Virus record (IMG/VR): IMGVR_UViG_3300037264_004886
Location: 1-62,134 of that record
Source of the DNA: a virus
Lineage: Duplodnaviria > Caudoviricetes
Reading direction: 5' to 3' (one strand)
Length of the DNA stretch: 62,134 bases
A program made the translations under genes and the position numbers. The notes beneath the pieces are model-generated. The model had not been told where the DNA came from. It searched no databases and saw only the letters and a program-made list of their open reading frames with translations. This document shows positions 1 through 62,134 of this stretch, piece by piece; position 1 is the stretch's first letter, and each line of letters opens with the position of its first letter.

Positions 1-135
1 AGTTGTGTTCGTTATCACCTGTGGATTTTGAATTTCCATTTGGTTAAGCACATCTACTTTTGCGTTTGTGGTTCCGATAAGAGCATTATATTGGTTTGCT
101 TTTGTTGTATACTCAATAAATCCGGGCTCACTTCC
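1..135. repeat. Terminal overlap, left copy (matches 62000-62134); indicates circularity
   Basis: 1-126 is identical to 62000-62125; 127-135 has 2 mismatches, both synonymous in the minus-strand frame (GGA AGT GAG vs GGA AGC GAA). Confidence 0.95.
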
Positions 136-1626
136 GATCCACTTTCCGTCTTTAATATTCCCGGCACTTAACATCGTTAATTCGTTCTGCATGGTGATGA
201 GATTTGATTTTTGGGTCGTTACATCGGCTCGTAAATCAAAGATGGTATCGTTTGACCCGGATATTGAGTACGTAGACTTTGAAGACGTGTTTGTAATCGG
301 GGCGAGAGGCTGTGCAGTCCCTCCACCACCAAACACTCCTCCGAAAAAACCCATTGCGGCATCCCAAACGGATTTTTGGATCTCAGTTCCGGTTCCTGGT
401 AATGTCGCGTCCGACTTCCCTGTCGAGCTGAACGGTGTCGGCAACCCTGCCCCCTCCATCGTCAGCCCGGGCACGTTCACTACGGTAACAGGTGCGCTCT
501 CTCCGAACCCGGGATAAACGGCAGTTGTTTTTCCAGTATCCTTGTCAATGGCTGTGAATACTGGATCTGTGTTGATTGTCTTGGGTGCGAACATCGGCAA
601 CCATTGAACTCCAGTAAACCCTTTCGGCAGGTTTGAATCTGCGAACTTTACCAGATTAGCATAGTTCCAGGCGTCTTGCGGATATACGCCCGGCTGTATG
701 ATGTTGCCTTTCGCGGCTTCACCTTCAATGGTTATACCAGTAAGTAACTGCACTCCTTTCGGATACAATTCACTTCCGATATCAGAATAGTTTTGAGGGT
801 TTTTCTGAATGTCCTGAACGAGAGCGGTTTGGTTTGCCGACCACATCGGGGTCATTCCGGAAACGTTTCCCCCGCCCTGTGCATAAACTATAGGGGTCTG
901 CGGTTTCCCGCTAACCGTTCCGCTCTGAAGTGCGTAATCTCCACCACCTGCGACAACCATATTGCCGCTGTAAATCTGGTATGCTCCTCCGGGTGCAAAC
1001 CCAATCTTTGCGTTGTCAATAGCGATCTGGGATTTGTCTCCCCACGGAACGAACATAGTAACGCCCGGGACGTTGCCGATTAGTGAAACCGGCATCGAAA
1101 ATAGTTTATCCATCGCATTACTGGAGTAATCCCGCAAAGGGACCGTTGCACGGGCATCCTCCCAAGAGCCGACAGTCATGAAACCCGGAGCGTTCACCAT
1201 CCCAGTAAACCCCTGATCAACGGCTTTCTTGTAGACGCCCGGATCTAACGTGCCACCCATGTGTTGTACATACGCAGCCTGCCCGGCGGCTGTTGACATA
1301 TCATAAGAGGGTGTGGATGGTTGTGTTGTCACTTGCGTTTGAGGTTGCGGAATAGATACGGTATTGTTGGCAATCTTGTTGTAAAGGTTATACTCCGCTG
1401 TACCCTGAGTGTACGGATTCGGGTTGCTGAAGTTTGTCGAACCCATCCAGTTGTTAAACTGAGTTTGGTTCCCTCCCCATAGTGGAAGATCAGATGCAGT
1501 ATACCCTCCACCAATCGGGTTGTTCCATCCGGGAGATCCCGGAGCATACGGCAATCCCGGTATTGACGGTGTTTGACCCGGTAGGTTATACGGGTTCGGG
1601 TCTGGGTTCGGATCGTATCCGCCCAT
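1..1626 (-). CDS. 5' part of a giant ~1716-aa protein continuing across the junction into 58475-61999
   Basis: ATG at 1626 (MGGYDPNPDPNPYNLPG...). I found no in-frame stop from 1626 to 1, and the frame joins ORF 58475..62050 through the overlap. Missed by the ORF track. Confidence 0.85.
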   Translation of the reverse strand, partial: MGGYDPNPDPNPYNLPGQTPSIPGLPYAPGSPGWNNPIGGGYTASDLPLWGGNQTQFNNWMGSTNFSNPNPYTQGTAEYNLYNKIANNTVSIPQPQTQVTTQPSTPSYDMSTAAGQAAYVQHMGGTLDPGVYKKAVDQGFTGMVNAPGFMTVGSWEDARATVPLRDYSSNAMDKLFSMPVSLIGNVPGVTMFVPWGDKSQIAIDNAKIGFAPGGAYQIYSGNMVVAGGGDYALQSGTVSGKPQTPIVYAQGGGNVSGMTPMWSANQTALVQDIQKNPQNYSDIGSELYPKGVQLLTGITIEGEAAKGNIIQPGVYPQDAWNYANLVKFADSNLPKGFTGVQWLPMFAPKTINTDPVFTAIDKDTGKTTAVYPGFGESAPVTVVNVPGLTMEGAGLPTPFSSTGKSDATLPGTGTEIQKSVWDAAMGFFGGVFGGGGTAQPLAPITNTSSKSTYSISGSNDTIFDLRADVTTQKSNLITMQNELTMLSAGNIKDGKWIGSEPGFIEYTTKANQYNALIGTTNAKVDVLNQMEIQNPQVITNTT

Positions 1627-6603: not shown

Positions 6604-6861
6604 TCAGACCTCCCCGGTTGTTTCATTCGATGTTTGGATAATATGGTTCAACAATAACGCCAACAGGTATAAGAACGGAATTGCCTTGAATGCCAGACTT
6701 AAGTAGTAAAGAGTGTTGAGAGCGTCCTGGCTCAACATCAACCCCGTAATACTACTATTTGCAGTTTGAATTATTTTGTCGCAGACGAATCCCATACACC
6801 CGAATATCAACCCCACAACAAGGAAATTGATAACCAATCCCACCAAACTTCCAGCAGACAT
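6604..6861 (-). CDS. 85-aa two-TM hairpin protein (possible minor capsid protein)
   Basis: Same architecture as the neighbouring gene. Confidence 0.5.
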   Translation of the reverse strand: MSAGSLVGLVINFLVVGLIFGCMGFVCDKIIQTANSSITGLMLSQDALNTLYYLSLAFKAIPFLYLLALLLNHIIQTSNETTGEV

Positions 6862-17841: not shown

Positions 17842-18786
17842 ATGTCAGAAGCACAAACAGAACCAATCTATGAGGGAATGATGCTCCCAGCAGGGCTGTC
17901 ACTCCCAACCGTACATATAGATGAATACCCTGATATCCCGGAAGAGGCTATCAACGAGACCCCCGCAGCGCCCGAGATCAAGGCAACCCTCACACCGGAA
18001 GCAACTATAACACAAGTCCTAAAATGTGTTATGACCGCCAGCCAGTACCACGAGATCTCAAAATCTCTTGCATCACTTGTACCTGAGTGCAGGATGCATA
18101 TCTCAGTACTCGGACTGAAGGTATTAGCTGTTGACAACGCTAATGTCGCGATGGTCCTCTATGATCAGTATGCCAATTCGTTTGAGACCTTCGAGACAGC
18201 GACTCAGAAGGACATCGGGATTGACATAAAGAAATGGTTGACCTTTGGAAAGAACGTACAGAAAAAATCCTTTGTGTGTTTTGACGTGATGGAACGCCAA
18301 GAGCCCCCAACGAAAGAGGGTAAACCGGGCGCCATATCACACAGGTACACCCTCAGCAGTGGAGGGACCGTTCAAACGTTCACAGGACTTGATACAAACA
18401 CAATCCGCAGGGACCCGAACCCGCCGACCATCACATTAAACACGTCTTTTCTAATTCACGCGGGGACCTTCATAGAGGCTATCAAGACCTGTAAGACTGT
18501 CAGCGATAAGATAGAGTTCTCATATGATGGCAAGGACAACCTGACAGCAATAGCCCAGGGTGACACCGATAAGATGGTGAAACAAATTTTGTTTAACCAG
18601 TCAATCGGACCCGCGTTCAATTCGTTATTCTCTCTGGATTATCTGGTTGACATCGCCAAGGCGATCCAGAACAAAAAGGAGGTTCTGGAAGTATCATTCA
18701 ATACTGATCGCCCCATCAGGATAAAACTGGTGAACTCAGAACGGGAAATCGTCTTTCTGCTAGCCCCCCGGATTCAGGCGGATTGA
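17842..18786 (+). CDS. pcna: PCNA (DNA sliding clamp) with acidic N-terminal extension
   Basis: AVDNANVAMV, FSLDYL, RPIRI and C-terminal FLLAPRI motifs typical of archaeal PCNA. Confidence 0.9.
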   Translation: MSEAQTEPIYEGMMLPAGLSLPTVHIDEYPDIPEEAINETPAAPEIKATLTPEATITQVLKCVMTASQYHEISKSLASLVPECRMHISVLGLKVLAVDNANVAMVLYDQYANSFETFETATQKDIGIDIKKWLTFGKNVQKKSFVCFDVMERQEPPTKEGKPGAISHRYTLSSGGTVQTFTGLDTNTIRRDPNPPTITLNTSFLIHAGTFIEAIKTCKTVSDKIEFSYDGKDNLTAIAQGDTDKMVKQILFNQSIGPAFNSLFSLDYLVDIAKAIQNKKEVLEVSFNTDRPIRIKLVNSEREIVFLLAPRIQAD

Positions 18787-32076: not shown

Positions 32077-32179
32077 TCAGCGATTTGGTAGTAATAGCAA
32101 TCTTTACTGGTGCAATAGGGTTCTGCATCGGGTGGTTCGGGGCGTGGGGTGTGCTCGGAGCGTGGTGGGAAGTGAGGGA

Positions 32180-35595: not shown

Positions 35596-35753
35596 ATGAA
35601 CCTATCAGAATGTGTAAGAATACACAGGATGCGATTAACGGCACTATTGAACCAGTATGCTGAAGGAAAAATCTCACACCAGAAAATGTATGCGATATTA
35701 CGCAGATGGGAGAGAGAGATATGAAAAAGAAACACAGAGAAGCGATGATCGCT
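35572..35753 (+). repeat. 182-bp direct repeat, copy 1 (copy 2 at 37053-37234)
   Basis: Identical by eye; each copy contains the 42-aa ORF MNLSECVRIHRMRL... Confidence 0.95.
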
Positions 35754-35794
35754 ATGGGAATCGAAGTCGAGACAGGAGAGGGGGCGACGGCAGA

Positions 35795-36550
35795 ATGAGG
35801 ATCATCTACGAGCCCCGGGGCCGTGCTCTGGAGTATGCCCCGCTCGCGGTCTCCCTGTATCGCGGCTGCCCGCATGGGTGCACGTACTGCTTCGTGCCGG
35901 AAAGCACAAAAACGGACCGCGAGAAGTTTCTGCAACCTTATCCACGAAAGGATGCGCTCTCACTCTTGAGGAAAGACTGTGAAGAACTGGTGCGGGCCGG
36001 GGATACGCGCGAAATTCTCATGAGTTTTACGACCGATCCATACCAACCGCTCGACGTTGACCACAAACTCACGCGATCGGCGATCCAGATCCTGATCGAT
36101 TATTCCCGCCCATTTACCATCCTGACAAAAGGTGGACTGCGAAGCACGCGAGATTTTGATCTCCTTGTCACCCGCCCGGACCTTTGCCGGTATGCGACGA
36201 CACTCACATGCAGCAATATAAATACCGAAGCAAAGTGGGAACCGTTTGCAGCAACATACAAGCAACGGCTCGACGCCCTAATAGAAGCCCACAAGCGAGG
36301 GATTAGGACATGGGTAAGCATCGAACCGGTAATCGATCCCGAACAATCCCTCGCGCTTATCAGTATGACACACGCCCTCGGTTGTGTCGATCTCTACCGT
36401 ATCGGTACGCTGAATCATGAGACGTTACCATACCCTAAGCAATCACTTTATGAATTCGTAAAAAAGGTTAAACTGATCCTCGAAGATACCGATCACATTT
36501 TCAAGAAAGACCTCCAGCCGTACCTGAAGACAGCGGGGGTGCCAGATTGA
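35795..36550 (+). CDS. Radical SAM protein (SplB-like superfamily)
   Basis: YRGCPHGCTYCF; TDPYQP; ILTK; WVSIEP. Confidence 0.85.
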   Translation: MRIIYEPRGRALEYAPLAVSLYRGCPHGCTYCFVPESTKTDREKFLQPYPRKDALSLLRKDCEELVRAGDTREILMSFTTDPYQPLDVDHKLTRSAIQILIDYSRPFTILTKGGLRSTRDFDLLVTRPDLCRYATTLTCSNINTEAKWEPFAATYKQRLDALIEAHKRGIRTWVSIEPVIDPEQSLALISMTHALGCVDLYRIGTLNHETLPYPKQSLYEFVKKVKLILEDTDHIFKKDLQPYLKTAGVPD

Positions 36551-36761: not shown

Positions 36762-37076
36762 ATGAAACCCGACCCCCTCACCTGCATCGTCTGCGGCGCA
36801 AAGATCCCCTGCATAACAGAACGGAAACTCGCAATCAATGATATCACTCCCGATAGTGATGATTTTTCCCGGTTGGATCTCTCTATTGAAACCGGAGATT
36901 TAATTTGTATTTATCGTGGAGAGAATGTAATATCTGAACAGGGCATCCGGCAATCCGAGCGGGAGAAAGTGCTGGATGAATTACGAGATTGGTCATACAC
37001 TATAATGGTGAATAACTGTGCATTGGCAGCGATGGCAATGAGGGATAAGATAGAATCCCTGCGGAAGGTGGAGTAA
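36762..37076 (+). CDS. Hypothetical protein
   Basis: GGAGG RBS; CxxC. Confidence 0.55.
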   Translation: MKPDPLTCIVCGAKIPCITERKLAINDITPDSDDFSRLDLSIETGDLICIYRGENVISEQGIRQSEREKVLDELRDWSYTIMVNNCALAAMAMRDKIESLRKVE

Positions 37077-37234
37077 ATGAACCTATCAGAATGTGTAAGA
37101 ATACACAGGATGCGATTAACGGCACTATTGAACCAGTATGCTGAAGGAAAAATCTCACACCAGAAAATGTATGCGATATTACGCAGATGGGAGAGAGAGA
37201 TATGAAAAAGAAACACAGAGAAGCGATGATCGCT
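37053..37234 (+). repeat. 182-bp direct repeat, copy 2
   Basis: Matches 35572-35753. Confidence 0.95.
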
Positions 37235-38125
37235 TATGGATTGAAGATCGCGGCACATGAAGAGCTGCTCCGGCGGCACAAGATATGTCTTGATGTACAC
37301 AATGTGCGGTTTGGGGATGCAAAGGTTGCTTACAACTCTTGCATGACGAGGCTTGCGGTGCACGATGAAGAAATTGAAGCACTATCAGAAGATGATCCGC
37401 TTGAAATCGGATACAGACAAGACATGTTCCAGAGAGTGAAGGTTCTGGAAGGTATGATGGTTCCGAAAGAAGGTCAGGCAGCTCGAAGGTTTTGGCAAAT
37501 TCCCGATCAGCGATTCGTGATATTAGAACAACAGATCAAAACGATTGAAGGCATCTTGAATAACACTCCATTCAGTTCGGTGCTGATGAAAGAATTGGTC
37601 AATAGAGTTACCGCTCTGGAAGGGGATCGCCACACATTCCTTCCGCATCAACACATCGGAGTAGAGGATCGGATTAAGGTGCTGGAAGAAAACTCCATTC
37701 CTGTAAAATACATCAAAAAAGAATGTAATACCTATCATGACGAAGTGAAGGTTATCTGGGAAAAACACGAAACACGTATCACTGCGGTTGAAGATGCATG
37801 GCGACAATCGCAGAAAACGGAAGGGAAAATTATCGACATTGCCAGTAGGAGAGAAGTAGTCGTTGAAACACTCCAGCAGCAGATCAAGGAAATCAACTCA
37901 CGACTCACGGCACTCACCAACAAATACCTCGAGCTGAGACCAACGCAGAAGAAACAACCAAAAACCGTGCTTGAATGGGGAATGGGAACAGCACCACCAG
38001 CACCGGACACTCCACAAGTAAACCTGCTTGCTGTGAAGAAGAGCAGACCCCGGAAGAAGAAAGCAGCATTAAACGCAGAGAAAGAATATAAGAGGATTAT
38101 GAAACACGGAGCGAGTGTGGGGTGA
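37202..38125 (+). CDS. Coiled-coil protein
   Basis: Repeated R(V/I)..LE heptads. Confidence 0.6.
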   Translation: MKKKHREAMIAYGLKIAAHEELLRRHKICLDVHNVRFGDAKVAYNSCMTRLAVHDEEIEALSEDDPLEIGYRQDMFQRVKVLEGMMVPKEGQAARRFWQIPDQRFVILEQQIKTIEGILNNTPFSSVLMKELVNRVTALEGDRHTFLPHQHIGVEDRIKVLEENSIPVKYIKKECNTYHDEVKVIWEKHETRITAVEDAWRQSQKTEGKIIDIASRREVVVETLQQQIKEINSRLTALTNKYLELRPTQKKQPKTVLEWGMGTAPPAPDTPQVNLLAVKKSRPRKKKAALNAEKEYKRIMKHGASVG

Positions 38126-38501: not shown

Positions 38502-40373
38502 TTAAAAATCAAACGGGTTCTTCCCCCGGGGTTTATACCCTCGCGGAATCCCCACAACTTTCCCAAGTCCTTTAATCATCGGGTTCCGGGATATCCGAAT
38601 GTTAATATCACCGCTCTTACCTTTCTTTTTAGCAGGAGTGGTTGGTTTCTTTGGAGTGGGTTTCGGTCTTCGCTCTCCCAATCCTGCGAACGGGTCCCCG
38701 AACGCCCCTGCCCGTCCCAACCCCGCCAGCGGGTCCGGATGTGCTCCGCGCCTGGGTGCAATTCCACCCATGAAGTTGTCCATTCCCCCGGGCGATCCAC
38801 CGAAACTGCGAGGCGACGGCATATACGCTTTACCCGGGTTATACGACGGTGCTTTGAACGCACCCCGGCTCTCTTTGTTGGACCGCGGGCGACCGGGTGG
38901 GTTCGATTGGTGCGGCATTGCTTTTCGTAACCGTTGCTGCTGTTCGGCTTCGTGGATTTTGCGTTCCATCGCGGTATCTTTTGCCATACTACGCGCTTCT
39001 CTTTCTGCTGCTGTGGGCGCAACGGTTTTTCTGATGGTTTCTTTTACTCCAGTAACGAGTTTATCAGAAGTTTTACCGATTACCTGAACAGGTTTTGATT
39101 TTGCAAGTTGCTGTCCGGTCGACAACCCTTCTTTTACCTGGCGTTGCTGAGCGCGAATAGATCGCTGGTCGGCAATTTCTTTATCGATCTTACCTTGTGC
39201 CAGCGCGTCTTGAATTTCTTTGTTGCGCTTTACACGTTTCGCGTTCGCTTCGTCTGCTCTTTGCTGTGCTTGCATTTCAGATTCTTGCTGTGCCCGGTAC
39301 GCTGCCTCTTCGCGCTTTTCTTTGCTGTCTTCGAGTTTGTCTCTGATTGCATCCAGAAAACCCATCATCTACCCCCGTCTAAAGACGTTACTGTCCCGGG
39401 CGCTCGCAACCAGTCTCTTTGCGTCCGGTAGTGCAAGTGCTTTACCCTGTGCGTTCACGCCACGCATCCGCACCTGGGGGACTTTGATTTTCTGAACTTG
39501 TAGTTTGTTCCCGTCCGGTGCTTTGAATACAGTTTTCCATTTGTTGGTTAATGCTACCATTTTCTTTTACCTCCACATTTTTTTATGAAATGAAACCATC
39601 CCGCGTGAGCAGGGTTGGCGTTCGACATCCGACCAATCTTCGCTGTTCCCAACTTCTTTTGAAGAATAGTCTCGTTTCTCTCCAAACCAATATCTCGGGG
39701 TGGTTGACGACAACATTACGATCTCCCCCGTTTTTTTGTTTTGTTTAGATCGTTGAACTGGCATTCTCTACCTCCTCTTAGCTACATTCAGGGCGAAGTT
39801 CGCCCTGTATTTCGTCTTGGTGTCAATCACAACACCGCCCACCTGCCCGCCAATCGGTGTCTGTACGATTTGCCGGAGTAGACTGGTCGGCACGGGCGCT
39901 TGGTCGGAGATCCCGAACTGTGCTTTCAGCGCTCGCTGTTTCGGTAGGGACTTACCGGACCCGAACCCGAAGTTCGAGCCGCCCCCTCGCCCAAACATGT
40001 CGCCGGGAATGGGAGTCATGGCGACTTCGGGATTGCGTTCATCAGTCCAACGGCAATACCGCCAACCATACCGATTTTGGCGACATCCACGATTCCGTTT
40101 GCCAGGTTGTCCATCCCACCAGTCTGCGGTTTCATAGCGTATGGGTTCCTGCGTGCCGGTGCCGGTCTCGGGCGTCTCGGGACTTCAAATGGATCAGAGA
40201 AATCAAACGGGTTCCGCCGGTACGGGTTTTTGGGTCTTGTAGGGTTCTTCATAGTCTTTCTCCTTTTACACCGATAACTTTTCTGTCGGCGTGTTCAATC
40301 ATCTCATGCATTTTCTCTTTGCTGGGAATACCAATCCCATACGGATTGTACCGTTTTTCTTTAGGAATTTGCA
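38502..40373 (-). other. Operon of small basic/Pro-Gly-rich proteins (38502-39368, 39369-39560, 39567-39764, 39768-40019, 40016-40252, ~40249-40373); candidate nucleoproteins
   Basis: Coupled ORFs, K/R-rich; NPFDF motif in two; TTTATATA promoter at ~40397-40404. Confidence 0.55.
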
Positions 40374-40415
40374 TAGTTGCTAATGAGAATAGAAAATATA
40401 TAAAGGTTATGTATT

Positions 40416-40680
40416 CCCAACCCCCGGGTGTGAACCGGGGGTTGGGGGGATGTTGTGCTGACTTGTGTGGTGCTGTGTCGTGCCGTGTTGCGCGGTGTAG
40501 TGGCGTGTCGTGATGTGCCGTGCCGTGGCGTGTTGTGTTGAATCAAACTTTCACTACCTCGTTTGACCGAAGTAATGAAATGTTGTGCTGACTTGTGTGG
40601 TGCTGTGTCGTGCCGTGTTGCGCGGTGTAGTGGCGTGTCGTGATGTGCCGTGGCGTGGCGTGGTGTGCAGTGTCGTGGCG
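40416..40680 (-). ncRNA. Two CAC+NN pentamer arrays (20 and 18 units), each followed by a hairpin; candidate guide RNAs
   Basis: Strict 5-nt period; 73-bp identity between 40450-40522 and 40580-40652; hairpins at 40549-40580 (two G.U pairs on the minus strand) and 40416-40447. Confidence 0.75.
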
Positions 40681-40688
40681 AAAAAATT

Positions 40689-41180
40689 TTATGCTACTAT
40701 GGGGTTAGCTTCCGATATCTGAACCGACTTTTTCAGTCCGAACCGTTTTGCCATTCTTGCTTTTCCCAGTATAGCGTTTCCAACAGTTTTGTTGTTTTCA
40801 AATACATCTTTTGTGTATTGCGGTAGTTCTTCAGAATGGGTTGTTTCGAGGTTTGTAGTTGCTTTAACCATTCTGCGGGTGCTACCGATAATTCGTTCTG
40901 TTTTGTTCGATGCGATTGTAATAGAGTTTTCAACCGAACTTAAAATGTATCCGTAGTTCGGTTTGTTTAAACACTCTCTGCCCAACCGTTTGCACGCGGT
41001 ATAGAACATTCCGCGATTCGCACCGGCTTTGATATCAAAGCTAAGTTCTTCTTTCAGTTCTTTATATGTTACCTCTTCCCCGTTCTTTTTGGCAAGAAGA
41101 TACGCTTCGAGTTTGAGGGTCTCTTCCGATGGGGTAAAAGTTGGTTTCTTTTTGGGTTTTGAATCTTCAGTGTATTTCAT
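40689..41180 (-). CDS. Putative winged-helix-like accessory protein of the RAMP operon
   Basis: GEEVTYKEL...GYIL pattern; between the RAMP gene and the arrays. Confidence 0.5.
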   Translation of the reverse strand: MKYTEDSKPKKKPTFTPSEETLKLEAYLLAKKNGEEVTYKELKEELSFDIKAGANRGMFYTACKRLGRECLNKPNYGYILSSVENSITIASNKTERIIGSTRRMVKATTNLETTHSEELPQYTKDVFENNKTVGNAILGKARMAKRFGLKKSVQISEANPIVA

Positions 41181-41185
41181 GAAAA

Positions 41186-41743
41186 TCACTTCCATTTTAT
41201 TGAAGTGACTTCAAACCGTCCGAAGTATCCACGGTTCCGAACCCGGAACGCACCCAGACCGATCAGGTTCCCGGCAGTCATTAAGACCTCTTCAAAGATT
41301 TCTTTGGTAATCATATCGTCAAGAATGATTACATCGGTTGAACCTTTCCATGCGTCGATAGTTGGGAAATGCCGGGTTACCTTTGACTTTCCGCCGATTG
41401 TTCCGTCGGAAGAGCAACGAATAGAACTTTTCTTTACGTCGTTGATATTGATTCCGAGCGGCATGTGGTTCGTTACAAGAATACCGGATTCAAAATGTTT
41501 CGTCCACGTTTCATTGCGGCGCCCGGGGATCTTCTTGTTTAAGAATTTACACGCCTCTTTGATAGCAATCGCAATCGCCATTGGGGGGATTGTAACAATT
41601 CCGTCTGGATCTACGTGGGCTTTGTTTTTCCATGTTCGCTCTTCCCACGCATCGGGCTGTTCGCCGTCGAGTTTTGGGGTGTTGTGGTATCTGGACTGTG
41701 CGTATGCAGACAATGATTTCAGGGTGATTGTACATGTTCTCAT
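41186..41743 (-). CDS. Stand-alone Cas7/RAMP-like RNA-binding protein
   Basis: N-terminal beta strand (ITLKSLS), IPPMAIAIAIKEA (cf. IPGSSLKGALR), C-terminal Gly loop AGNLIGLGAFRVRNRGYFGRFEV. Confidence 0.75.
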   Translation of the reverse strand: MRTCTITLKSLSAYAQSRYHNTPKLDGEQPDAWEERTWKNKAHVDPDGIVTIPPMAIAIAIKEACKFLNKKIPGRRNETWTKHFESGILVTNHMPLGININDVKKSSIRCSSDGTIGGKSKVTRHFPTIDAWKGSTDVIILDDMITKEIFEEVLMTAGNLIGLGAFRVRNRGYFGRFEVTSIKWK

Positions 41744-45712: not shown

Positions 45713-46075
45713 TCATTCCCCCCGGTCCATATACTTGAACGAATCATCAATCAGTTGTCCATATCCTCCGTGAACAAGTTCGCCCATGTGGTCTAATACG
45801 TGAGCACACACGAAATTGGAAGTCTCCCACTTCCCTACTTTATATAAGTTTTCGGCGTTCATACACAACCCCACACATTCGTCAAAGATTGGTTTGAACT
45901 CATCAAACTCCCCTGTAAGTTTCGATGCAATGATGAGTGCGGATACCAGGTTGCGAGTGTTCCCGGGTTTCCGGGACGGATCGATTCCGCGAGCGTTGAC
46001 ATAATGTGCCCCGATCTCCATTCGCAACTGCGTATTGATCTTTTTCTTTCTTTCTTCAAATGTTAAAAGCGCCAT
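45713..46075 (-). CDS. Hypothetical protein
   Basis: Overlaps the ATPase 3' end. Confidence 0.55.
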   Translation of the reverse strand: MALLTFEERKKKINTQLRMEIGAHYVNARGIDPSRKPGNTRNLVSALIIASKLTGEFDEFKPIFDECVGLCMNAENLYKVGKWETSNFVCAHVLDHMGELVHGGYGQLIDDSFKYMDRGE

Positions 46076-47228
46076 GTTTCACCGCGTGTTTACTCTTCTT
46101 TAATCGTATTTTCAGTTTGCCGAGAATGTCCAAACAGAGTTTCTGGTGGATTCCGAGATACGACGCCAGTCTTGCAACATTCGTATTCGGTTCGTCTGCG
46201 ATAAACTTCTGAATTTCAAGTTCGTATTTCATCGCCTGGTCTGCTACGTTCTGTTCGTGGAGGGTTGGACCTTCCCGCACTTTGTGTTTTGGTTTTGGTT
46301 TCTGCACCGGGTTCCGGAACGTCCCGGTCTCTACAATGCGTTTGTTGACGTCTAACGCAGATTGTTCGCGCTGTTTGTCGTATCCGACAATTAGTTCGGT
46401 TGGAGGTTTTAATGAAACCCAGAAATCTATTTTCCGTTTACCAAAACCCATACGACGGTTATACTCTTTCCCCAAAAACCCAATTTCAGATGAGTTGACT
46501 TTAACTAAATTGAATCCTCCAGCGTGAAACGATTTGTAGATGCTCATTGTAATATCGCACATTTCACGGACTTGGTTGTCGACGTGTTTTTTTAACGGAG
46601 CTGTGAGTAACAATATCCAGCGGTTCGTCCGGGCAACCGTCATTAACGCATTGAAGTTTCGGTTCTGTGGTGAGTTCCAACTTCGGTTACTGACTGCTAA
46701 ACTACAATCATCCACAATTACAATCTGATACTTTCCGGCATCCTTTAAAATTTGCATTACTCGGTCGGTATCTTCGAGGGTAGCGACGTGATTTAATGAA
46801 AAGTAATCTTTCCAATCTCCCCCCAACACTTTTGCAATTTCGTGTGCGATTCGATATGCAATCCACAACGCCGTATACGATTTCCCAGAACCTCGCCTGC
46901 CTTGAATGAATATGATTAAGTCCTGCCGGTCTGTACCAGTAACCCGTTTCGCCGCCCAGATACAGAACGGAGAATCTGGAACCGGGATTTGTTGTTTTTG
47001 GATCTCGGTTACATAGTTCGCCATTCGTTTAATGGCGCCTGGAGTAGCCGGACCCAAATCTATCAACCCGGTAATCCCGGGCACCCACGGGATGACTACT
47101 GGCGGAGGAGGGGGTGGTTTTGGAAACATCACGTCGTAATCATATTCTTCTACGGGCGCCGGGGCGATCTCTACGCCAATCTCTCCGTCATCTACGATTG
47201 GTTGATCTTCTATGTCGTCTTCCGTCAC
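46056..47228 (-). CDS. Zot-like / packaging-type P-loop ATPase
   Basis: GRRGSGKS, IVIVDD, R...ILLLTAP...VDNQVRE (Zot-like D..(I/V)R); C-terminal HTH-like segment. Confidence 0.75.
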   Translation of the reverse strand: MTEDDIEDQPIVDDGEIGVEIAPAPVEEYDYDVMFPKPPPPPPVVIPWVPGITGLIDLGPATPGAIKRMANYVTEIQKQQIPVPDSPFCIWAAKRVTGTDRQDLIIFIQGRRGSGKSYTALWIAYRIAHEIAKVLGGDWKDYFSLNHVATLEDTDRVMQILKDAGKYQIVIVDDCSLAVSNRSWNSPQNRNFNALMTVARTNRWILLLTAPLKKHVDNQVREMCDITMSIYKSFHAGGFNLVKVNSSEIGFLGKEYNRRMGFGKRKIDFWVSLKPPTELIVGYDKQREQSALDVNKRIVETGTFRNPVQKPKPKHKVREGPTLHEQNVADQAMKYELEIQKFIADEPNTNVARLASYLGIHQKLCLDILGKLKIRLKKSKHAVKHGAFNI

Positions 47229-47624: not shown

Positions 47625-47677
47625 TTTAAATACCATATCGTTCTTATTACTTTGTAAGCGAGGTGATTGAATACGAA
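47625..47677 (+). promoter_or_regulatory. TATA box plus 33-bp leader/RBS, duplicated at 48105-48156
   Basis: TTTAAATA at 47625 and 48105; TATTACTTTGTAAGCGAGGTGATTGAATACGAA at 47645 and 48124. Confidence 0.8.
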
Positions 47678-48071
47678 AATTAAAAAGATGCAGATGGTTC
47701 TTGCGCAAGGACTTCGCACTACGATTGACGAGCACGGGGTCACACAGGGAATCATGATGTTTGTGGTCGCGGCTGTAATGATCGCAATCATGCTCCCGGT
47801 GCTGAATGGTGTGATGACGGCGTCCCCGGTGCTTACTACAGATCCAATGATGGTTAATAATTTAACCAGTGGGGGGGTGCATGTAGCTGGTGCAAATGCC
47901 ACAGGATATGGAACTCTCACTACTAACGCCGCAATGGTATCAACCCAGAGCACAATGTGGACAACTATCGGTAGTTCCTACGGACTTCTCGTCGTAGTTT
48001 TAATCCTCATTGCTGCAGCAGTTATCCTCGGAGCTATCGGGCTCTTCCGGTACTTCGGTGGACAGGACTAA
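47667..48071 (+). CDS. Putative major capsid protein 1 (hydrophobic helical hairpin, spindle-virus-like)
   Basis: Basic leader ending DEHG, two long hydrophobic helices, glycosylation sequons in the linker; own promoter. Confidence 0.65.
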   Translation: MNTKIKKMQMVLAQGLRTTIDEHGVTQGIMMFVVAAVMIAIMLPVLNGVMTASPVLTTDPMMVNNLTSGGVHVAGANATGYGTLTTNAAMVSTQSTMWTTIGSSYGLLVVVLILIAAAVILGAIGLFRYFGGQD

Positions 48072-48145
48072 ACCCAATTAATCTCTCCTTTTTTTTCAAT
48101 AATCTTTAAATAGTATATACGTGTATTACTTTGTAAGCGAGGTGA

Positions 48146-48454
48146 TTGAATACGAATTTCAAAGCTATTGTTAAAGCCGGTCTCCGCAAGACTATGGGCG
48201 ACTACGGTGTGACGCAGGGAATTATGATGTTCGTGGTTGCCGCGATTATGATCGCCGTGCTGCTTCCTGTGCTCAATGGAGTGCTGACTGCAACCCCGGT
48301 GATCCTGACGGGTCCGCTCAACACCACGCAGCAAACTGTCAACACTACAATCGGTAGTGCGTATGGTCTGCTCGTAGTTGTGTTAATCCTCATTGCTGCA
48401 GCAGTTATCCTCGGAGCTATCGGGCTCTTCCGGTACTTCGGTGGACAGGAGTGA
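48146..48454 (+). CDS. Putative major capsid protein 2 (paralogue)
   Basis: Leader ending GDYG then VTQGIMMFVVAA; 68-bp identical 3' end with paralogue 1. Confidence 0.65.
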   Translation: MNTNFKAIVKAGLRKTMGDYGVTQGIMMFVVAAIMIAVLLPVLNGVLTATPVILTGPLNTTQQTVNTTIGSAYGLLVVVLILIAAAVILGAIGLFRYFGGQE

Positions 48455-48479
48455 AGTTGGAACAAATTTCCAACTTTTA
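48454..48479 (+). terminator. Hairpin after the capsid-like genes
   Basis: AAGTTGGAA-caaat-TTCCAACTT followed by T. Confidence 0.5.
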
Positions 48480-48557: not shown

Positions 48558-49241
48558 ATGGTTGCCGGTAAATGTTCTGATCCTATAAAAGAAGCAGAGC
48601 GCATTCGTAAAATGGCAGAAACAAAGCGTTCGCAACATAGGCGTGTCGTTCATTCAGAAGAAGCACGCAAAAAAATGTCGGAAGCTAATTTGGGTGTGAA
48701 ACACCATCAATATGGAAAGCCGATTTCTGATGAAGTAAAACAAAAAATATCAATAACAATGTCTGGTCGTAAACGTCCGCAAAGATCCCCCGAATGGTGT
48801 CGTAAAATATCAGAGGGGCATAAAGGTAAACGACATACAATGGAAACCCGCATGAAAATGTCTAAAGCTCAACTTGGAGAAAAAGCAAAGTTGTGGAAAG
48901 GGGGATTGTCTTATGGCTTGTATTGCAAAGATGCAAAACCGTCTTATAAGCGAGTCCGTGCATATTTCAGTCATTGTTGTGTTAGGTGTGGTCAACCACA
49001 AACAAAAGAAAAATTGTGTGTGCATCATGTAGATTATGATAAAGAAGCCGGTTGTAAAGGAAAGAAATTTTGGGCTGTAACTCTGTGTCGTTCGTGTCAT
49101 ACTGAAACCAACAACAACCGCGAATATTGGGAATCACAATTCAAAGAAATGATAACGAATTATTATGGTGGGAAATGTATGCTAACCGAACAAGAGTTTA
49201 AAGATTTATATTCGGTGATTCCGGATGTTATCACCCAATAA
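48558..49241 (+). CDS. NUMOD3-repeat HNH endonuclease
   Basis: HSEEARKKMSEA repeats; CVRC...LCVHHVDYDK...LCRSCH...N. Confidence 0.75.
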   Translation: MVAGKCSDPIKEAERIRKMAETKRSQHRRVVHSEEARKKMSEANLGVKHHQYGKPISDEVKQKISITMSGRKRPQRSPEWCRKISEGHKGKRHTMETRMKMSKAQLGEKAKLWKGGLSYGLYCKDAKPSYKRVRAYFSHCCVRCGQPQTKEKLCVHHVDYDKEAGCKGKKFWAVTLCRSCHTETNNNREYWESQFKEMITNYYGGKCMLTEQEFKDLYSVIPDVITQ

Positions 49242-56775: not shown

Positions 56776-57215
56776 CCAAACTATTCTGGGGTATAAATTC
56801 ATACTTTACCCTATGTGATATCTGCGGAAATCAAGTTGTTGGAGGGCGGTTCAAACGCGGATATCACACATGTTCACCAGAATGTAATAAAAAGAAGTGG
56901 GATAACTGGAGTAAAATAATTATAGAAGAGGAGAAAAACGCAACCGGCATCAGACCAAAACTGTTTTGGCAGTCCATATCAAGAGAATGTTTAGTGCGTG
57001 ATGGATGGACGTGTCAGAAATGTGGTATCACCCAAGATCAGCTTATCAAACGCGGTGTTGATAATATGCTGCATTGCCATCATAAGAGACAAATAAAAGA
57101 CGGGGGTTCCAACAAACTTGAAAATCTAATAACTCTGTGCCCACAATGTCACAAAGAAGAGCATTCCCGTATAGGGAAAATTAAACGAATGCATCGCCAG
57201 CTGGTGTTTAAATGA
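56772..57215 (+). CDS. HNH endonuclease
   Basis: RDGWTCQKC...HHK...GGSN..ENLITLCPQCH. Confidence 0.85.
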   Translation: MTKLFWGINSYFTLCDICGNQVVGGRFKRGYHTCSPECNKKKWDNWSKIIIEEEKNATGIRPKLFWQSISRECLVRDGWTCQKCGITQDQLIKRGVDNMLHCHHKRQIKDGGSNKLENLITLCPQCHKEEHSRIGKIKRMHRQLVFK

Positions 57216-57817
57216 TCCCGGGTAATTATGTCTTTAGCGTGGCATTTTTCATCACGTTAGTATATGCTTCGTATCTAGATATCAAAACCAGAGTTGTTCC
57301 GTTTAAAACGTGGACTCCTATAATTGCTATTGGAATTGTTTACACATCTGAGTATCTAATCACAATGGGATATTTTGTCAATGGTGTTCTGTGGGGGTTA
57401 ATTGTTGTTTTGTTTTTGTATGCTAGATTTAATCAATCCATAAAACTGTACCACATCTTATCTATTCTCATCGTTTTTGGAGTAGTGGCGTATTTTCTTC
57501 CATCACAGTATATTTTATTTCTCTGTTTGATATGTGGGTTGTTTTACACGTTGGGGTGTTTAAATGTTATTGGGGGGGCTGATGCGTGGGTGCTTATATT
57601 CATTACATTATTCTCTCCAGAAAACCAATATCTATCTATAACTGTATTTATAATCGCGGTTTTTATTACTGTGTTTTGTTTGATAATAGTTTCGATAATA
57701 AAACACTTGTCTCATTCGGATGTTAAAAGTCTGTTAATAACATACAAAATTCCATTTATTATTCCTATTACTGTTGGGTACATTTTGATACAAATATTTA
57801 TATGGTTATGGAGTTGA
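57212..57817 (+). CDS. A24-family prepilin/prearchaellin peptidase (PibD/FlaK-like)
   Basis: YASYLDIKTRVVP (first Asp), IGGADA (GxD), C-terminal IPFIIPI..G; polytopic. Confidence 0.8.
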   Translation: MIPGNYVFSVAFFITLVYASYLDIKTRVVPFKTWTPIIAIGIVYTSEYLITMGYFVNGVLWGLIVVLFLYARFNQSIKLYHILSILIVFGVVAYFLPSQYILFLCLICGLFYTLGCLNVIGGADAWVLIFITLFSPENQYLSITVFIIAVFITVFCLIIVSIIKHLSHSDVKSLLITYKIPFIIPITVGYILIQIFIWLWS

Positions 57818-57826
57818 TTTAGCGTT

Positions 57827-58093
57827 ATGACGGTTTCAAAATTAATCTTCGCAGTAGCGATTGTGTTTATGATGGTTATCGGTATCGGGTTTGCGATTGT
57901 AAACCTTTCATCAGTTACGATAACCGACACGTATGGTTCAGCGCCCTCGTCTACAGTAAATGACACTACGGCAATGCTGACGAACGTAACAGCCGTCGGG
58001 CAGTCTGCCGGGACGGGGTTGTTGCTGGTAATAGCGGCACTGTTGGTAATGACGGCGGTTGGATTGTTGATTGTATACGGGAGGTCTAAATGA
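57827..58093 (+). CDS. 88-aa hydrophobic hairpin protein, capsid-like
   Basis: Two hydrophobic helices with Thr/Ser linker; GLLLVIAALLV resembles the MCP C-terminal helix. Confidence 0.5.
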   Translation: MTVSKLIFAVAIVFMMVIGIGFAIVNLSSVTITDTYGSAPSSTVNDTTAMLTNVTAVGQSAGTGLLLVIAALLVMTAVGLLIVYGRSK

Positions 58094-58474: not shown

Positions 58475-61400
58475 TTATCTCTTTCTTTTCGCAGGAACCT
58501 TAAACGGCGTAACCGACATTCTCGGCATCCTCGCAGGCTTGACGGGTTGAGCAAATCCTTTCTTACACGCCGGACGTATGAGAACCGCGTTCTGCTGAAC
58601 CGGGGTAGATGTTGGTGATGGGAGTTGAGGTCCGGCTATTCCGAATATCTGGTGCTGGCGGGGTTTTGAGTGAACTGCTACGGGGACTTTTACTATCCTT
58701 ACTGGCGTTCGCTTCGTTGCTACGGCTGCGGGGGTCTTAGCCCGGGGTTTTCCCTGCATCGCAAACCCAAGGTACTCAGTATATTTCCCATACTTCGTTC
58801 CGTGTGCCGGGCTCTGACCACCGGAGCCGCCGGGGAATGGGAGTATTGGCAATCCTATTTTTTTAGGGATGTCTATATTCCATCGTGGTTTTCCGGGTTC
58901 TGGCAAATCCGGATACTTTGGTAAATATGGGGTTACAACCGGAGTAACTTTCGGGTATGATGTGGGGAATGGGGTTACAGTTGCAAAAACATCTGTAATA
59001 GATGTCGCTGTCGAACCGGCGTGCGAAACTCCCGTAGCCTCTCCGGTTGCTATATCCGATCTCGTTCCGGTTTCAATACCTCCCTTCGTTCCCCATAATG
59101 TTCCCGCAGTCACATATCCGGATGCTTCCGATTGTGCGGCAGCAAGTTTGCTGGCGTAATCTGTAGCAAACGTTGGTTTTGTTATGTTATGGGATTCTGA
59201 TTTTATTTTGGATTTTACACCAAACTTAGATACCACTCCGCTTTTGATTGCATCCATTTCAGTTATAGCGGATACTTCGCCCGTTTTCACATTCAAACCG
59301 TATGACGGAATGGTTGCGGTCTCTATCTCGACAGATGCTTTCGGTATTGAAATTACGTTTCCAATACTTACGCCAACGCCCTGCCCCATACGTATCATCT
59401 CTTTGGTGTTTGAATCAACATCACCGATGGTTTGTTTCGCTCCGTAACTTAACGTATCAAATTGTGTAGATGGTGATACTTGAACTTCCGCACCGAACAA
59501 TATTTTAGACATGATATCTGTGGGTTGTGCTACGTTGGAATCTATGGTAGATTTCTGTCCGACGCTTGGTATATGGAACGATCCAAATACGGTTTCAAAT
59601 CCGGTTTTTACACTGGAATCGTAATCCATCCGGTCGTACGATCGAGTGTATGATGGGGTGATTGTTTTTGATTTGGTTTTGGTTTTCTCCGGTTCTTTGG
59701 TGATAATTACTTTCGGCTTCTCTTCCGAAACCAACGTTTCGCTTTGAAGGGGTTTTAGTGCGGGGGTTAATAATAGCGTCGGGGTCGCTGGTTTTGTTAC
59801 AGTCCCTCCAGAACCGCCTTTAAAAAATCCACCACCATCACTACCGGAATCGTCTCCGCCACCACTCATATGCGCCAACACGTTTACAGGCGTTACTTCA
59901 CCACTCTTTGTTATAAATCCCCCGGTCGCGATTGCGTCAATATCTCCCATTAACAATCCCCCGGATGCCAGTTGAGAGAACGGGATTATCGCAGGGTGTT
60001 GTCCACCATAGGCTGATAAGTCTGGTAGTGTTTCCGGTTCCACAGTGTGCTTTTTCTGTTTAATCACTACTTTTTTCGCGGGTTCTGGTTTTGCAGGTTC
60101 TGTTACTTTTTGAGATTCTATAGTTTGTGGCGTTTGCTGTTTGGGTGGTTCGATTGCTTGTGGAGGACCCACTTCAAGCGCCCACTTATCGTATGGTGAT
60201 AGTTCTTTTGATTCTGAGATTGGAGCGGAATCTAAAACGAAATCCGCGTGTTCAATTACAAACGGGGCGGGGGTTGTCGTTTTAACCGTTTCAATTACTT
60301 CTGGAGTTGGATGTGTTTGTTTTTTTGCCGGAGTGTCGGATAACGTATAGATTTTTGCGTTTTCAAACTTTCCTTTATGGAAAGATACTTCGACGGGTTC
60401 TTCTCGGATTCCAATTACATAATAAGGTTTTGTTTTAATTATCAATTCTTGCTGTACTGGATCGAGTAACGCAGGAGTAAAATCAGACGGTTTATATTCC
60501 AAAAGTATATTTGAGCCTCTACTATAAAGTAAAGCCACCTCTTTCGTTCCTGCAAACGAACGAATTGATCCCGGAGTATAAACATCCCCGACAAATTTTT
60601 TCTCTAATTTTTTTGTTCCGGTTCCCTGCACCCCTCTATATAATGTTCTACCCCGCACATCCGCCCCGAATTTTTCTATTCCCATCGCCAAATCAATTGC
60701 ATGTTTTCCATAAACTGCCGTTGCAACAAAACCCATCACCGGATCTTTGTATAATGCTGACCCCCGCACCACACGAGCCATAGATGAGAAATCTCTTCCG
60801 GTATACAATTCGACAGCATATTCCACCGATTTGTATGTTGGAGAATATACTTTAGAAATCAATCCAGAAACGGGTCTTTCTTGATTGCGTTGTAATACAC
60901 TGACCATATCTGATATTGACTGTGGAGTATACCCCATTCTTGGAGTGAAAAACACATCTGTCATTAGTTTGTTATCTGCATCAGATAATTGTCCATATGG
61001 TGCCCCTCCCAACACCCCAGGCATCGTTGGAACTATCGGGGGAAGCACCAACCCTCCAGGTGCATTAAACTGTGGTGTAACCTTTGACCCCGGCGCTTCT
61101 GCAAACTCAAATGTCGGTTGTTTTACTGTTTGTCCGACTTCGATTTTTGGGACAATATCAAATCTCGGGGCGTCTTCAACCCTTGGAACTTCCACAGGTA
61201 TTTCGGGTATCACAAGATCGATTGGTTGTGCAGGCAATTCTTTCTTTATGGGTTCTGGGGATATCGCACCTTCCGCCTTTGCAAGTATATTTTTGCCCAT
61301 ACCCGGCAACCCGGCAATAATCACAAATCCCCGCCCGGGGATATTCATAACTTGATTGTATCCTTGACCGGGCGCATTGAATAGTTGGCTCTCCGGAACG

Positions 61401-62134
61401 TCAACTATTTTCGGAAGTACGAATCCCCCCGGCACATTTACTTGTGGTCTGTCTTCCCACATCTCTTGAACCTTTAAACCGCCTTCAATTGTCTGTTCAA
61501 CGGTTGCTTTGGACTCTCCCGGAGAGACGTATTCAAATGGGTTCTGGATTGACGCCCGGTACGCTTCATAGTCTGCCGTTGTTTTTCCGGGGTTGTTGTT
61601 TAACCAATTGGACTTAGCACCTGCCTGTTGCTCTTTCATTGTCCATTCTAAACCCATCCCAACAAGTGTAGTTCCTACAACACCCCCGGCTAACCACGCA
61701 AACGGCACGGCTGCTGGAGAGATTGCTGTAGTGTCCAGTGCCAATCCCCCGGCGCCAGAGAATAGTTCTGGTGCTGAAGCGTATCCAACGGTTCCAGCAA
61801 TACCGCCCATCCCAACAACTTTTTTAAAAGCGTTTAAAAAGTTCTGGTCGGGGCTTTCCTTCCCTCCGGTCGTCCCCCCAAACAAATCTGTTTTTGGAAC
61901 TTGGAACACGTTTCCAATCCCGCCAAGTTTGTCCATTATATTAATCTGGAACCAATCTTTCGTTTCCGGAGTTGTCGTGATCTTTGTAGTTGTGGTGGCA
62001 GTTGTGTTCGTTATCACCTGTGGATTTTGAATTTCCATTTGGTTAAGCACATCTACTTTTGCGTTTGTGGTTCCGATAAGAGCATTATATTGGTTTGCTT
62101 TTGTTGTATACTCAATAAATCCGGGTTCGCTTCC
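58475..62134 (-). CDS. 3' part of the giant ~1716-aa protein with ADP-ribosyltransferase-like domain
   Basis: YTGRDF..M.R.VRG, TLYRG, IRSFA, QQELII at ~60340-60830; basic C-terminal tail. Confidence 0.75.
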   Translation of the reverse strand, partial: GSEPGFIEYTTKANQYNALIGTTNAKVDVLNQMEIQNPQVITNTTATTTTKITTTPETKDWFQINIMDKLGGIGNVFQVPKTDLFGGTTGGKESPDQNFLNAFKKVVGMGGIAGTVGYASAPELFSGAGGLALDTTAISPAAVPFAWLAGGVVGTTLVGMGLEWTMKEQQAGAKSNWLNNNPGKTTADYEAYRASIQNPFEYVSPGESKATVEQTIEGGLKVQEMWEDRPQVNVPGGFVLPKIVDVPESQLFNAPGQGYNQVMNIPGRGFVIIAGLPGMGKNILAKAEGAISPEPIKKELPAQPIDLVIPEIPVEVPRVEDAPRFDIVPKIEVGQTVKQPTFEFAEAPGSKVTPQFNAPGGLVLPPIVPTMPGVLGGAPYGQLSDADNKLMTDVFFTPRMGYTPQSISDMVSVLQRNQERPVSGLISKVYSPTYKSVEYAVELYTGRDFSSMARVVRGSALYKDPVMGFVATAVYGKHAIDLAMGIEKFGADVRGRTLYRGVQGTGTKKLEKKFVGDVYTPGSIRSFAGTKEVALLYSRGSNILLEYKPSDFTPALLDPVQQELIIKTKPYYVIGIREEPVEVSFHKGKFENAKIYTLSDTPAKKQTHPTPEVIETVKTTTPAPFVIEHADFVLDSAPISESKELSPYDKWALEVGPPQAIEPPKQQTPQTIESQKVTEPAKPEPAKKVVIKQKKHTVEPETLPDLSAYGGQHPAIIPFSQLASGGLLMGDIDAIATGGFITKSGEVTPVNVLAHMSGGGDDSGSDGGGFFKGGSGGTVTKPATPTLLLTPALKPLQSETLVSEEKPKVIITKEPEKTKTKSKTITPSYTRSYDRMDYDSSVKTGFETVFGSFHIPSVGQKSTIDSNVAQPTDIMSKILFGAEVQVSPSTQFDTLSYGAKQTIGDVDSNTKEMIRMGQGVGVSIGNVISIPKASVEIETATIPSYGLNVKTGEVSAITEMDAIKSGVVSKFGVKSKIKSESHNITKPTFATDYASKLAAAQSEASGYVTAGTLWGTKGGIETGTRSDIATGEATGVSHAGSTATSITDVFATVTPFPTSYPKVTPVVTPYLPKYPDLPEPGKPRWNIDIPKKIGLPILPFPGGSGGQSPAHGTKYGKYTEYLGFAMQGKPRAKTPAAVATKRTPVRIVKVPVAVHSKPRQHQIFGIAGPQLPSPTSTPVQQNAVLIRPACKKGFAQPVKPARMPRMSVTPFKVPAKRKR
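62000..62134. repeat. Terminal overlap, right copy
   Basis: Matches 1-135 at 133/135 positions. Confidence 0.95.

Follow-up and report, generated by a model that had tools for sequence, protein, structure and literature searches.

A putative ADP-ribosyltransferase domain close to T4 ModA/ModB in a giant protein of a probably archaeal, probably non-tailed virus

According to the parts of PMC9503650 dealing with phage heads, the ADP-ribosyltransferase (ART) Alt of phage T4 and the ARTs fused to MuF domains are packaged in the heads and released together with the DNA. Polyvalent proteins (Iyer et al. 2017) are described, in the sections of PMC5512222 devoted to them, as giant proteins of mobile elements with an embedded ART that are predicted to act at invasion; their ART is typically of the H-Y-D type, they comprise 2-15 domains and they occur in terminase-portal phages. 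In the same sections, such effector-carrying giants are tied to these phages and are scarce in archaea, nearly all of those exceeding 1000 amino acids (aa) being bacterial. As for archaeal viruses, the portion of PMC8651126 concerning haloarchaeal tailed viruses lists an ART for HVTV-1 and HCTV-5. In the full-text literature, no ART was found reported in a non-tailed archaeal or spindle-shaped virus, and the supplements of PMC5512222 and PMC9503650 may list more. Moreover, host takeover at entry is almost unknown for archaea-specific viruses (spindle-shaped, pleomorphic and similar). Here, the IMG/VR virus record IMGVR_UViG_3300037264_004886 was analysed over its whole length of 62,134 nt (hereafter, the window), focusing on a minus-strand gene that runs across the two ends of the window and encodes a giant protein of 1716 aa with a putative ART domain. 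The best overall explanation of this locus, with any delivery step excluded, was given a probability of about 0.6, and it includes the window being a complete genome of ~62 kb, either circular or circularly permuted.

To begin with, the motifs YT, RG, LYRG, RSF and QQE, on which the original prediction had based an ART-like domain of the R-S-E clade at ~60340-60830 within a low-complexity giant, were all located in a stretch of 220 aa (60275-60934, minus strand; P0001), where they read ELYTGRD, VVRGS, TLYRGV, IRSFAG and VQQELI, and the domain was delimited close to the proposed positions (Table 1). Among 1.84 billion representative proteins, two were matched at E ≤ 1e-3. One of them (P0003), a tandem-repeat protein with seven matched stretches, was discarded as spurious, and the other (P0002), a metagenomic protein of 1185 aa (E 1.3e-7) encoded on a contig of 11.7 kb, was the sole credible homologue in that collection. 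When the giant protein and P0002 were compared by BLASTP, the ART domain alone aligned (29% identity over 209 columns, E 2e-14), all the other segments giving E values of at least 0.36, so the domain appears as the most conserved part of two diverged giants. In particular, the motifs L-Y-R-G, I-Q-S-W-G and E-E-M-E-I of P0002 correspond to L-Y-R-G, I-R-S-F-A-G and V-Q-Q-E-L in the window. No further relatives came up: none of 855 candidates scored in a search for relatives of near length, P0002 alone scored among the 7999 candidates of a search for longer proteins with the alignment of the window and P0002 domains (hereafter, the two-sequence alignment), and this alignment found no match in JGI metagenome contigs. 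Likewise, IMG/VR scans with a piece of the giant protein, the two-sequence alignment, the ATPase described below, the 546-aa neighbour and P0002 gave no relatives, nor did tblastn of the window domain, the P0002 domain and a 1219-aa piece against phage records (a single row at E 3 being chance) or blastn of bases 1-3272 against the same kind of records.

The two-sequence alignment was then compared by hhalign with the T4 ModA/ModB family (PF26816 in precomputed annotations), for which a set of 22 sequences, enlarged with 18 IMG/VR loci, was used, or 21 sequences once a row interrupted by a stop had been removed. T4 ModA alone was matched weakly (5%, P 7.9e-3), and T4 ModB alone reached 24% (P 8.1e-4) with the Arg, the Ser and the ExE motif aligned in order. 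Eight ModA/B sequences raised the value to 75% (P 2.5e-5), covering the Arg and Ser region only, and the sets of 22 and 21 sequences gave 91.7% (P 8e-7, score 48.3) and 85.9% (P 5.3e-6, 112 columns), respectively. For the last two sets, the scores were 43-48, compared to a mean of 12.8 (sd 2.3, maximum 21.2) for 150 column shuffles of the two-sequence alignment and to 19.7 for the reversed alignment. Of the two T4 enzyme types named beforehand as using these motifs, Mod was matched at profile level (85.9-91.7%) and Alt showed no similarity (0.9%). Moreover, a hidden Markov model (HMM) of the 21 ModA/B sequences, run with filters off on the 839 six-frame open reading frames (ORFs), retrieved the giant ORF alone (residues 496-540, E 0.0022), the next best ORF having an E value of 2.5; P0002, which was searched along with these ORFs, gave no score by itself. 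A MAFFT alignment of 15 sequences (the window domain, P0002 and 13 ModA/B) showed five invariant positions in all of them (R100, G101, G116, S126 and E163) and two nearly invariant ones (F127 and E161), E161 being a Gln in the window. The S-T-S motif had been taken as degenerate, a defect that was not upheld, as S-F-A fits the S-F-[S/T] that ModA/B show at this position with little or no variation.

Further ARTs pointed in the same direction. The ART of HVTV-1 (PF03496, E 3.5e-11) was aligned by hhalign with the two-sequence alignment over 125 columns (P 7.5e-4), with agreement at Y-R-G, at the Ser position, at the Glu motif and, farther upstream, at the helix motif Y...L-R-G. In a language-model atlas where shuffled proteins reach 0.95 about once per 100, phage clusters with PF03496 were the nearest look-alikes of both the 220-aa stretch (0.95) and the domain of P0002 (0.94). 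Taken together, membership in the R-S-E clade, with ModA/ModB of phage T4 as the nearest family by sequence profile, is well supported, and both the homology to ARTs and the ART fold are very probable.

The predicted structure was consistent with this placement. The AlphaFold and profile check of the domain that had been suggested at the outset matched ART families, with the model built from the family alone failing and the one built on the 15-sequence alignment giving an ART fold. In the latter, the predicted local distance difference test (pLDDT) was 70-93 over residues 80-204 and below 50 in the N-terminal 76 residues. A Foldseek search of the PDB with this model gave 94 matches at E ≤ 1e-3, of which the best were to C3 exoenzymes, C2-I, Certhrax and the Tre1 toxin-immunity pair. 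The VIA search, which is independent of Foldseek, gave Z scores of 8.5-9.9 in its first 15 rows (119-153 residues, root-mean-square deviation of 2.7-5.8 Å, mostly ~3 Å), all of which are ADP-ribosylating enzymes: CPILE-a, Tre1, VIP2, a Listeria ART-ARH effector, HopU1, C2-I and SpvB, as well as Certhrax, C3larvin, Vis, C3stau2, ExoS, XopAI and C3bot2. Diphtheria-type, Tpt1 and PARP folds appeared only at Z 3-5.5. Among the viral predicted structures of BFVD, ModA/ModB came first, followed by ARTs fused to MuF or portal domains, the MuF-type fusions bearing titles such as 'minor capsid' and 'head morphogenesis'. By its modelled structure, the domain would be nearest to enzymes of the C3/VIP2/Tre1 type.

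Regarding function, the domain is probably active as a catalyst, judging from its conserved residues, and it would bind NAD+ and move ADP-ribose onto a host macromolecule. The acceptor may not be arginine, because QxE, which is also the motif of C3, stands in place of ExE. The Q-x-E of the window set against the E-x-E of P0002 and ModA/B suggests that the choice of acceptor may differ between the two members of the family, which offers a natural test of acceptor specificity. The QxE motif is also found in the guanine-specific pierisin/Scabin group, and it brings in an improbable alternative in which the basic C-terminal tail (22 K/R vs. 1 D/E in 115 residues) holds the ART on DNA, either to mark the viral genome against nucleases or to disable host DNA or RNA. 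Nevertheless, Scabin and DarT scored only Z 3.8 and 3.2 in the structural search, compared to 8.5-9.9 for the protein-modifying C3/VIP2-type enzymes, and P0002 carries E-x-E. In any case, the domain represents a concrete enzyme that can be tested, with ~180 residues and R997, S1023 and E1060 as its key positions.

The gene encoding this protein was proposed to be complete only when the two ends of the window are joined, and the joint is almost certainly sound. Bases 1-135 recur at 62000-62134 with 133 of 135 identical, and the two mismatches (62126 and 62129) are synonymous in the frame of the giant gene. On the minus strand, two frames run off the window, that of 58475..62134 at its 5′ end (1219 aa) and that of 1..1626 at its 3′ end (542 aa), and the 45 residues closing the latter are identical to the 45 opening the former. 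Joined over the unit of 61999 nt (1626->1 and 61999->58475), they form an ORF of 5151 nt, i.e. 1717 codons with the stop and 1716 aa, without any internal stop and with the same protein whichever copy of the repeat is used. The two mismatches lie in the final 9 bases, which probably accounts for the lack of an exact terminal repeat in the record, considering the usual practice of repeat detection.

Assembled Logan contigs of public runs were used to check the junction and the selection acting on the gene. Run X1, possibly the source run, had 98% of the sampled words, and run X2, from another study, contained a relative differing at ~6-7% of positions over the pieces aligned (e.g. 19/311, 17/362, 19/309 and 20/283); runs X3-X5 had small shares only, and the contigs left parts of the stretch uncovered. 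Among the 40 differences listed, beyond which there were 256 further ones, 31 were synonymous and in third position and nine changed a residue. Furthermore, the indels of the related contigs fell into four groups, all of them keeping the frame (+12; -1 with +1; -1 with -2; +2 with +1). Purifying selection acts on the frame 58475..62134(-), and the giant gene is taken as real because the differences are mostly in third position and the indels in frame. Past base 62134, record 8 of X1 extends by 39 letters and record 16 of X2 by 231 (extensions known by their length only), so the DNA continues beyond the window end. An artefact of assembly, with the halves of the ORF coming from different molecules or from the ends of a linear genome, is extremely improbable: the linear class of the record, the overlap's two mismatches, both within its final 9 bases, and a junction judged from contigs, with no bridge at read level, speak for it, but the overlap is 133/135 identical with both mismatches synonymous, reading across the joint meets no stop for 5151 nt and contigs of two studies pass base 62134. 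The original prediction of a junction-spanning ORF of this size was borne out, and a real gene across a real junction is almost certain. In addition, the contigs of the related strain in X2 had loose ends with unlike sequence beyond 58604-58611, 60093 and 61795-61852, which suggests mosaic or hypervariable stretches between strains inside the giant gene.

Table 1. Positions of the giant gene, of its segments and of other genes and repeats in the window.
Feature	Position	Strand	Remarks
Giant gene, 5′ part	1..1626	-	ATG 1624-1626; residues 1-542; G/P/N/T-rich; no family match
Giant gene, 3′ part	58475..62134	-	Stop 58475-58477; residues 498-1716
ART-like domain	60338..60865	-	Residues ~921-1096; N-terminal helical part and beta core (putative)
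Arg997 codon	60635..60637	-	LYRG; R of R-S-E, by alignment
Ser1023 codon	60557..60559	-	IRSFAG; first Ser of the S-T-S position, by alignment
Gln1058-Gln1059-Glu1060 codons	60446..60454	-	QxE; E-M-E in P0002, E-x-E in ModA/B
Gly/Ala-rich hydrophobic segment	61640..61816	-	Best 19-residue Kyte-Doolittle mean 1.53; N-terminal to the ART
C-terminal basic tail	58478..58822	-	22 K/R vs. 1 D/E in the last 115 residues; ends in AKRKR
Terminal overlap	62000..62134		Matches 1-135; sets the circular unit at 61999 nt
Upstream neighbour, 546 aa	1632..3272	-	Q/E-rich; no family match; basic tail ending in KKRR
Adhesin-like protein, 1585 aa	7690..12447	-	Gly_rich_2, Laminin_G_3 and PKD domains; farther upstream, same block
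DnaA-like AAA+ ATPase	46056..47228	-	Matches spindle-shaped viruses; phrog_5484, E 3.9e-14
Archaeal-type PCNA sliding clamp	17842..18786	+	NF002222, E 3.6e-46, below the curated cut-off

The giant gene is the largest of the genome, and its product is rich in G, T, P and S along the whole length (G 10.7%, T 9.1%, P 9.0%). Outside the ART domain, it had no match to Pfam or PHROG families, and neither internal repeats in the protein nor a paralogue in the window were found. The hydrophobic segment (Table 1) falls below the Kyte-Doolittle cut-off for transmembrane helices (1.6); a segment above this cut-off was found in P0002 (residues 326-348), likewise N-terminal to its ART domain. The giant gene is the last of a minus-strand block that also holds the adhesin-like protein and several small membrane proteins, and the stop of the 546-aa gene lies 5 nt ahead of its ATG. 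A GFAM-x-GK-like motif, seen by eye only, is common to this neighbour and the tail of the giant protein, and the C-terminal third of P0002 is Q/R-rich, like the neighbour. In this structural block, the 546-aa gene is separated from the gene preceding it by a NUMOD3 homing-endonuclease gene (3387-4487, minus strand); the latter has a paralogue with 39% identity at 48558-49241 (plus strand), and several HNH endonucleases are also present.

The type of virus and its host were assessed from the remaining genes. In the phage and virus collection, the DnaA-like ATPase matched 22 records, namely 21 of Sulfolobus spindle-shaped viruses and one of the Haloferax lemon-shaped virus LSV-48N (E 8e-5 to 7e-3), the latter having this ATPase alone in common with the window. 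The window also encodes the PCNA sliding clamp of Table 1, a type IV prepilin-like peptidase with an archaeal C-terminal motif and a DUF3821 protein that was counted toward an archaeal host. The host is probably an archaeon. A search of genome contigs for the host with the DUF3821 protein gave nothing, and the same search with the helicase gave one contig of 66 kb, binned to a Fibrobacter metagenome-assembled genome (MAG), which has only three replication genes in common with the window (AAA_24, the next ORF and the SF2 helicase; 32-37% identity) and no match to the two-sequence alignment. This contig is similar in size to the window and may itself be a virus or a plasmid. No tRNA genes and no Macro or ADP-ribosylglycohydrolase (ARH) families were found in the window.

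With respect to the virion, three model families were searched, of which Phage_capsid and Phage_portal had no match in the window and Terminase_6N had a weak, sub-threshold P-loop match on the SF2 helicase only. All the ORFs of at least 360 aa had another assignment or were of low complexity, and the all-ORF PHROG scan listed 25 of 101 families, so that a weak structural match on a small ORF is possible. An SDH Clp-like protease showed faint similarity to head-maturation proteases. A non-tailed virion is likely on these grounds, and it may be spindle-shaped. Within 57212-58093 (plus strand), the archaeal-type A24 prepilin peptidase gene is directly followed by an ORF of 88 aa (57827-58093, plus strand) with hydrophobic N- and C-terminal stretches and no match in Pfam, PHROG or NCBIfam, which could be a candidate capsid protein of a spindle-shaped virus or a pilin-like substrate (small capsid proteins with two hydrophobic helices, of the SSV1 VP1 / His1 VP21 type, were considered). 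Another small ORF with two hydrophobic helices lies at 6329-6861.

Several results weigh against the best overall explanation. Searches of the whole giant protein and of its 220-aa stretch against Pfam, PHROGs and PDB sequences found nothing relevant, and PF03496 (ADPrib_exo_Tox) stayed below its gathering cut-off, with no match at E ≤ 10 on either the domain or the six-frame window. A single Pfam row (NrS1-1_pol-like_HBD, E 0.051, 13.9 bits vs. a cut-off of 27.9) was taken as chance. The T4 Alt domain showed no similarity to the two-sequence alignment (P 0.06). AlphaFold2 with the two family members only gave an unusable model (mean pLDDT 34), and the model on the 15-sequence alignment is to be read as a consistency test and a placement in the R-S-E clade, not as independent proof of the fold, because that alignment contains ModA/ModB sequences; sequence searches of the PDB gave no relative for ModB itself. 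Of the S-T-S position, the first Ser alone is kept (S-F-A in the window, S-W-G in P0002), and a Gln in place of the first Glu of ExE changes or abolishes the transferase activity of some ARTs. Moreover, the record is classed as linear in IMG/VR with a CheckV completeness of 73%, and the PrimPol, AAA_24 and helicase genes have their closest counterparts in bacterial phages or in a contig binned to a bacterial MAG. Finally, neither a MuF/portal fusion in the giant protein nor a capsid protein match in the genome was detected that would tie the protein to a virion.

Two alternatives draw on part of these results. That the motifs look ART-like by chance only, in a protein of low complexity with no ART domain at all, would fit the absence of curated HMM and PDB sequence matches and the failure of the two-sequence AlphaFold2 model; it is very improbable, considering that the shuffle controls scored far lower, that the genome-wide HMM scan singled out the ART site, that two independent ART families aligned on the same motifs and that the language-model look-alikes agreed for two sequences only 28% identical. 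A catalytically dead ART fold, serving as a structural or binding module in a fibre, an adhesin or an internal scaffold, is somewhat less far-fetched and still improbable: inactive ART-like folds do exist (e.g. the anthrax lethal factor domain, at Z 8.2 in the VIA list), part of the S-T-S motif is missing, the first Glu has given way to Gln and the Pfam ART models had no match, but R, S and the catalytic E are invariant in two proteins that are 28-29% identical here and unalignable elsewhere, as well as across 13 ModA/B sequences. The best overall explanation, that of a genuine and probably active ART in the giant protein, is retained in what follows.

As to how the enzyme would reach its target, the giant protein might be made together with a structural and adhesion module, travel in the virion with its basic tail on the DNA and its hydrophobic segment at the membrane, and reach the cytoplasm of the host when the virus enters, in the way of T4 Alt and the MuF-fused ARTs of tailed phages. 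The position of the gene, the basic tail and the hydrophobic segment hint at such a virion-borne protein delivered at entry, which is put forward tentatively. The role in host takeover or anti-defence that had been predicted draws on the same kind of features and is likewise tentative. If so, the strategy of Alt and of the MuF-fused ARTs would be extended to another virus architecture and to another domain of hosts. Pfam families were searched over both halves of the giant protein at E ≤ 1 with zero matches, so no MuF or portal domain was recognised. The fuller proposal, a non-tailed and probably spindle-shaped archaeal virus with a giant, largely disordered 'pilot' protein that brings the ART in with the DNA, using the basic tail as a genome tether and the hydrophobic segment to engage the membrane, is doubtful. 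If it were true, an archaea-specific virus morphotype would have its first proposed virion-delivered enzymatic effector, and effector delivery would be possible without a head-tail injection machine.

On the other side, the ART may be real and remain unpackaged, with the giant protein acting inside the infected cell in the manner of T4 ModA/ModB, where it would modify host or viral proteins, and with the low-complexity part as a scaffold or a tether (e.g. to the membrane or DNA). The nearest family, ModA/ModB, consists of non-virion proteins in the account given in part of PMC5512222, and no MuF, portal or capsid link was found; however, the gene ends a block with adhesin-like and membrane proteins, apart from the replication genes, and a length of 1716 aa together with a basic tail would be peculiar in an early enzyme that is soluble. 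This possibility was judged rather unlikely. Even if the protein is not virion-borne, it would still be a very divergent ModA/ModB-like enzyme modifying the host in an archaeal virus.

Other repeats were observed elsewhere in the window. Between 32210 and 32622, a unit of 15 nt, which would translate into a pentapeptide repeat, occurs ~27 times in tandem, inside the overlapping ORFs 32069-32737(+) and 31893-32675(-). A direct repeat of 203 nt (35572-35774 and 37053-37255; 95% identical, 1481 nt apart) flanks a radical-SAM gene (35657-36550) and two small ORFs, and the bracketed segment looks duplicated or cassette-like. Furthermore, a G/T-rich tract with a periodicity of 5-15 nt (40425-40687), located between the ORFs 39857-40513(+) and 40689-41195(-), contains two copies of 88 nt, 130 nt apart and with 98% identity, and could be a candidate regulatory or replication-origin region. 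Direct repeats of two kinds (40 nt at 93% and 112 nt at 89%) are found at 47645-48455, in a divergent intergenic region where a minus-strand block ends at ~47572 and a plus-strand block starts at 48558.

Compared to known systems, the best profile match of the window domain is T4 ModA/ModB, with which it shares the order of the motifs (L-Y-R-G, G-D/E-v, S-F, E-x-E) and the S-F form. However, ModA/B are stand-alone proteins of ~200 aa from T4-like bacteriophages, with E-x-E and ~37 extra residues between the Ser and ExE motifs, while the window domain lies in the middle of 1716 aa and has Q-x-E. The top structural matches were the C3, VIP2/iota/C2-I, Certhrax and Tre1-type ARTs, with 9-20% sequence identity, all of which are bacterial toxins that are secreted or injected. 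T4 Alt and the ARTs fused to MuF or portal domains would follow the same logic of a virion-carried ART, and the MuF and portal fusions are among the structural neighbours; in contrast, the window has no profile similarity to Alt, no MuF/portal domain and no recognised head-tail genes. With respect to the polyvalent proteins, the giant protein has one recognisable domain, of the R-S-E type, and no recognised terminase or portal accompanies it.

The closest case in an archaeal virus is gene 115 of HVTV-1, a tailed virus of Haloarcula, which encodes a protein of 1313 aa annotated as 'zeta toxin' with a PF03496 ART at its extreme C-terminus. It lies between the head-assembly and prohead-protease genes (68622-72563 of the HVTV-1 record), an arrangement similar to that of polyvalent proteins. 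In both viruses, an ART is found in a protein of more than 1300 aa, that of HVTV-1 among morphogenesis genes, so a giant ART-bearing protein of a morphogenesis module was already present in an archaeal virus. Nevertheless, HVTV-1 is tailed, its ART gene being surrounded by those for a terminase, a prohead protease and an HK97-type capsid protein, and its ART passes the Pfam cut-off, is C-terminal and has the motifs Q-S-T-S and E-A-D-E, unlike the window domain, which is below the Pfam cut-off and mid-protein. The locus had been considered unusual for an archaeal non-tailed virus, and this holds for the non-tailed context and the divergent subfamily, but not for an ART in an archaeal-virus giant as such, given HVTV-1. 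Therefore, what would be new relative to the known systems is the non-tailed context with a fusellovirus-type ATPase, an R-S-E subfamily near ModA/ModB that is invisible to Pfam, and an ART placed in the middle of an otherwise featureless, basic-tailed giant, in a family with one known relative.

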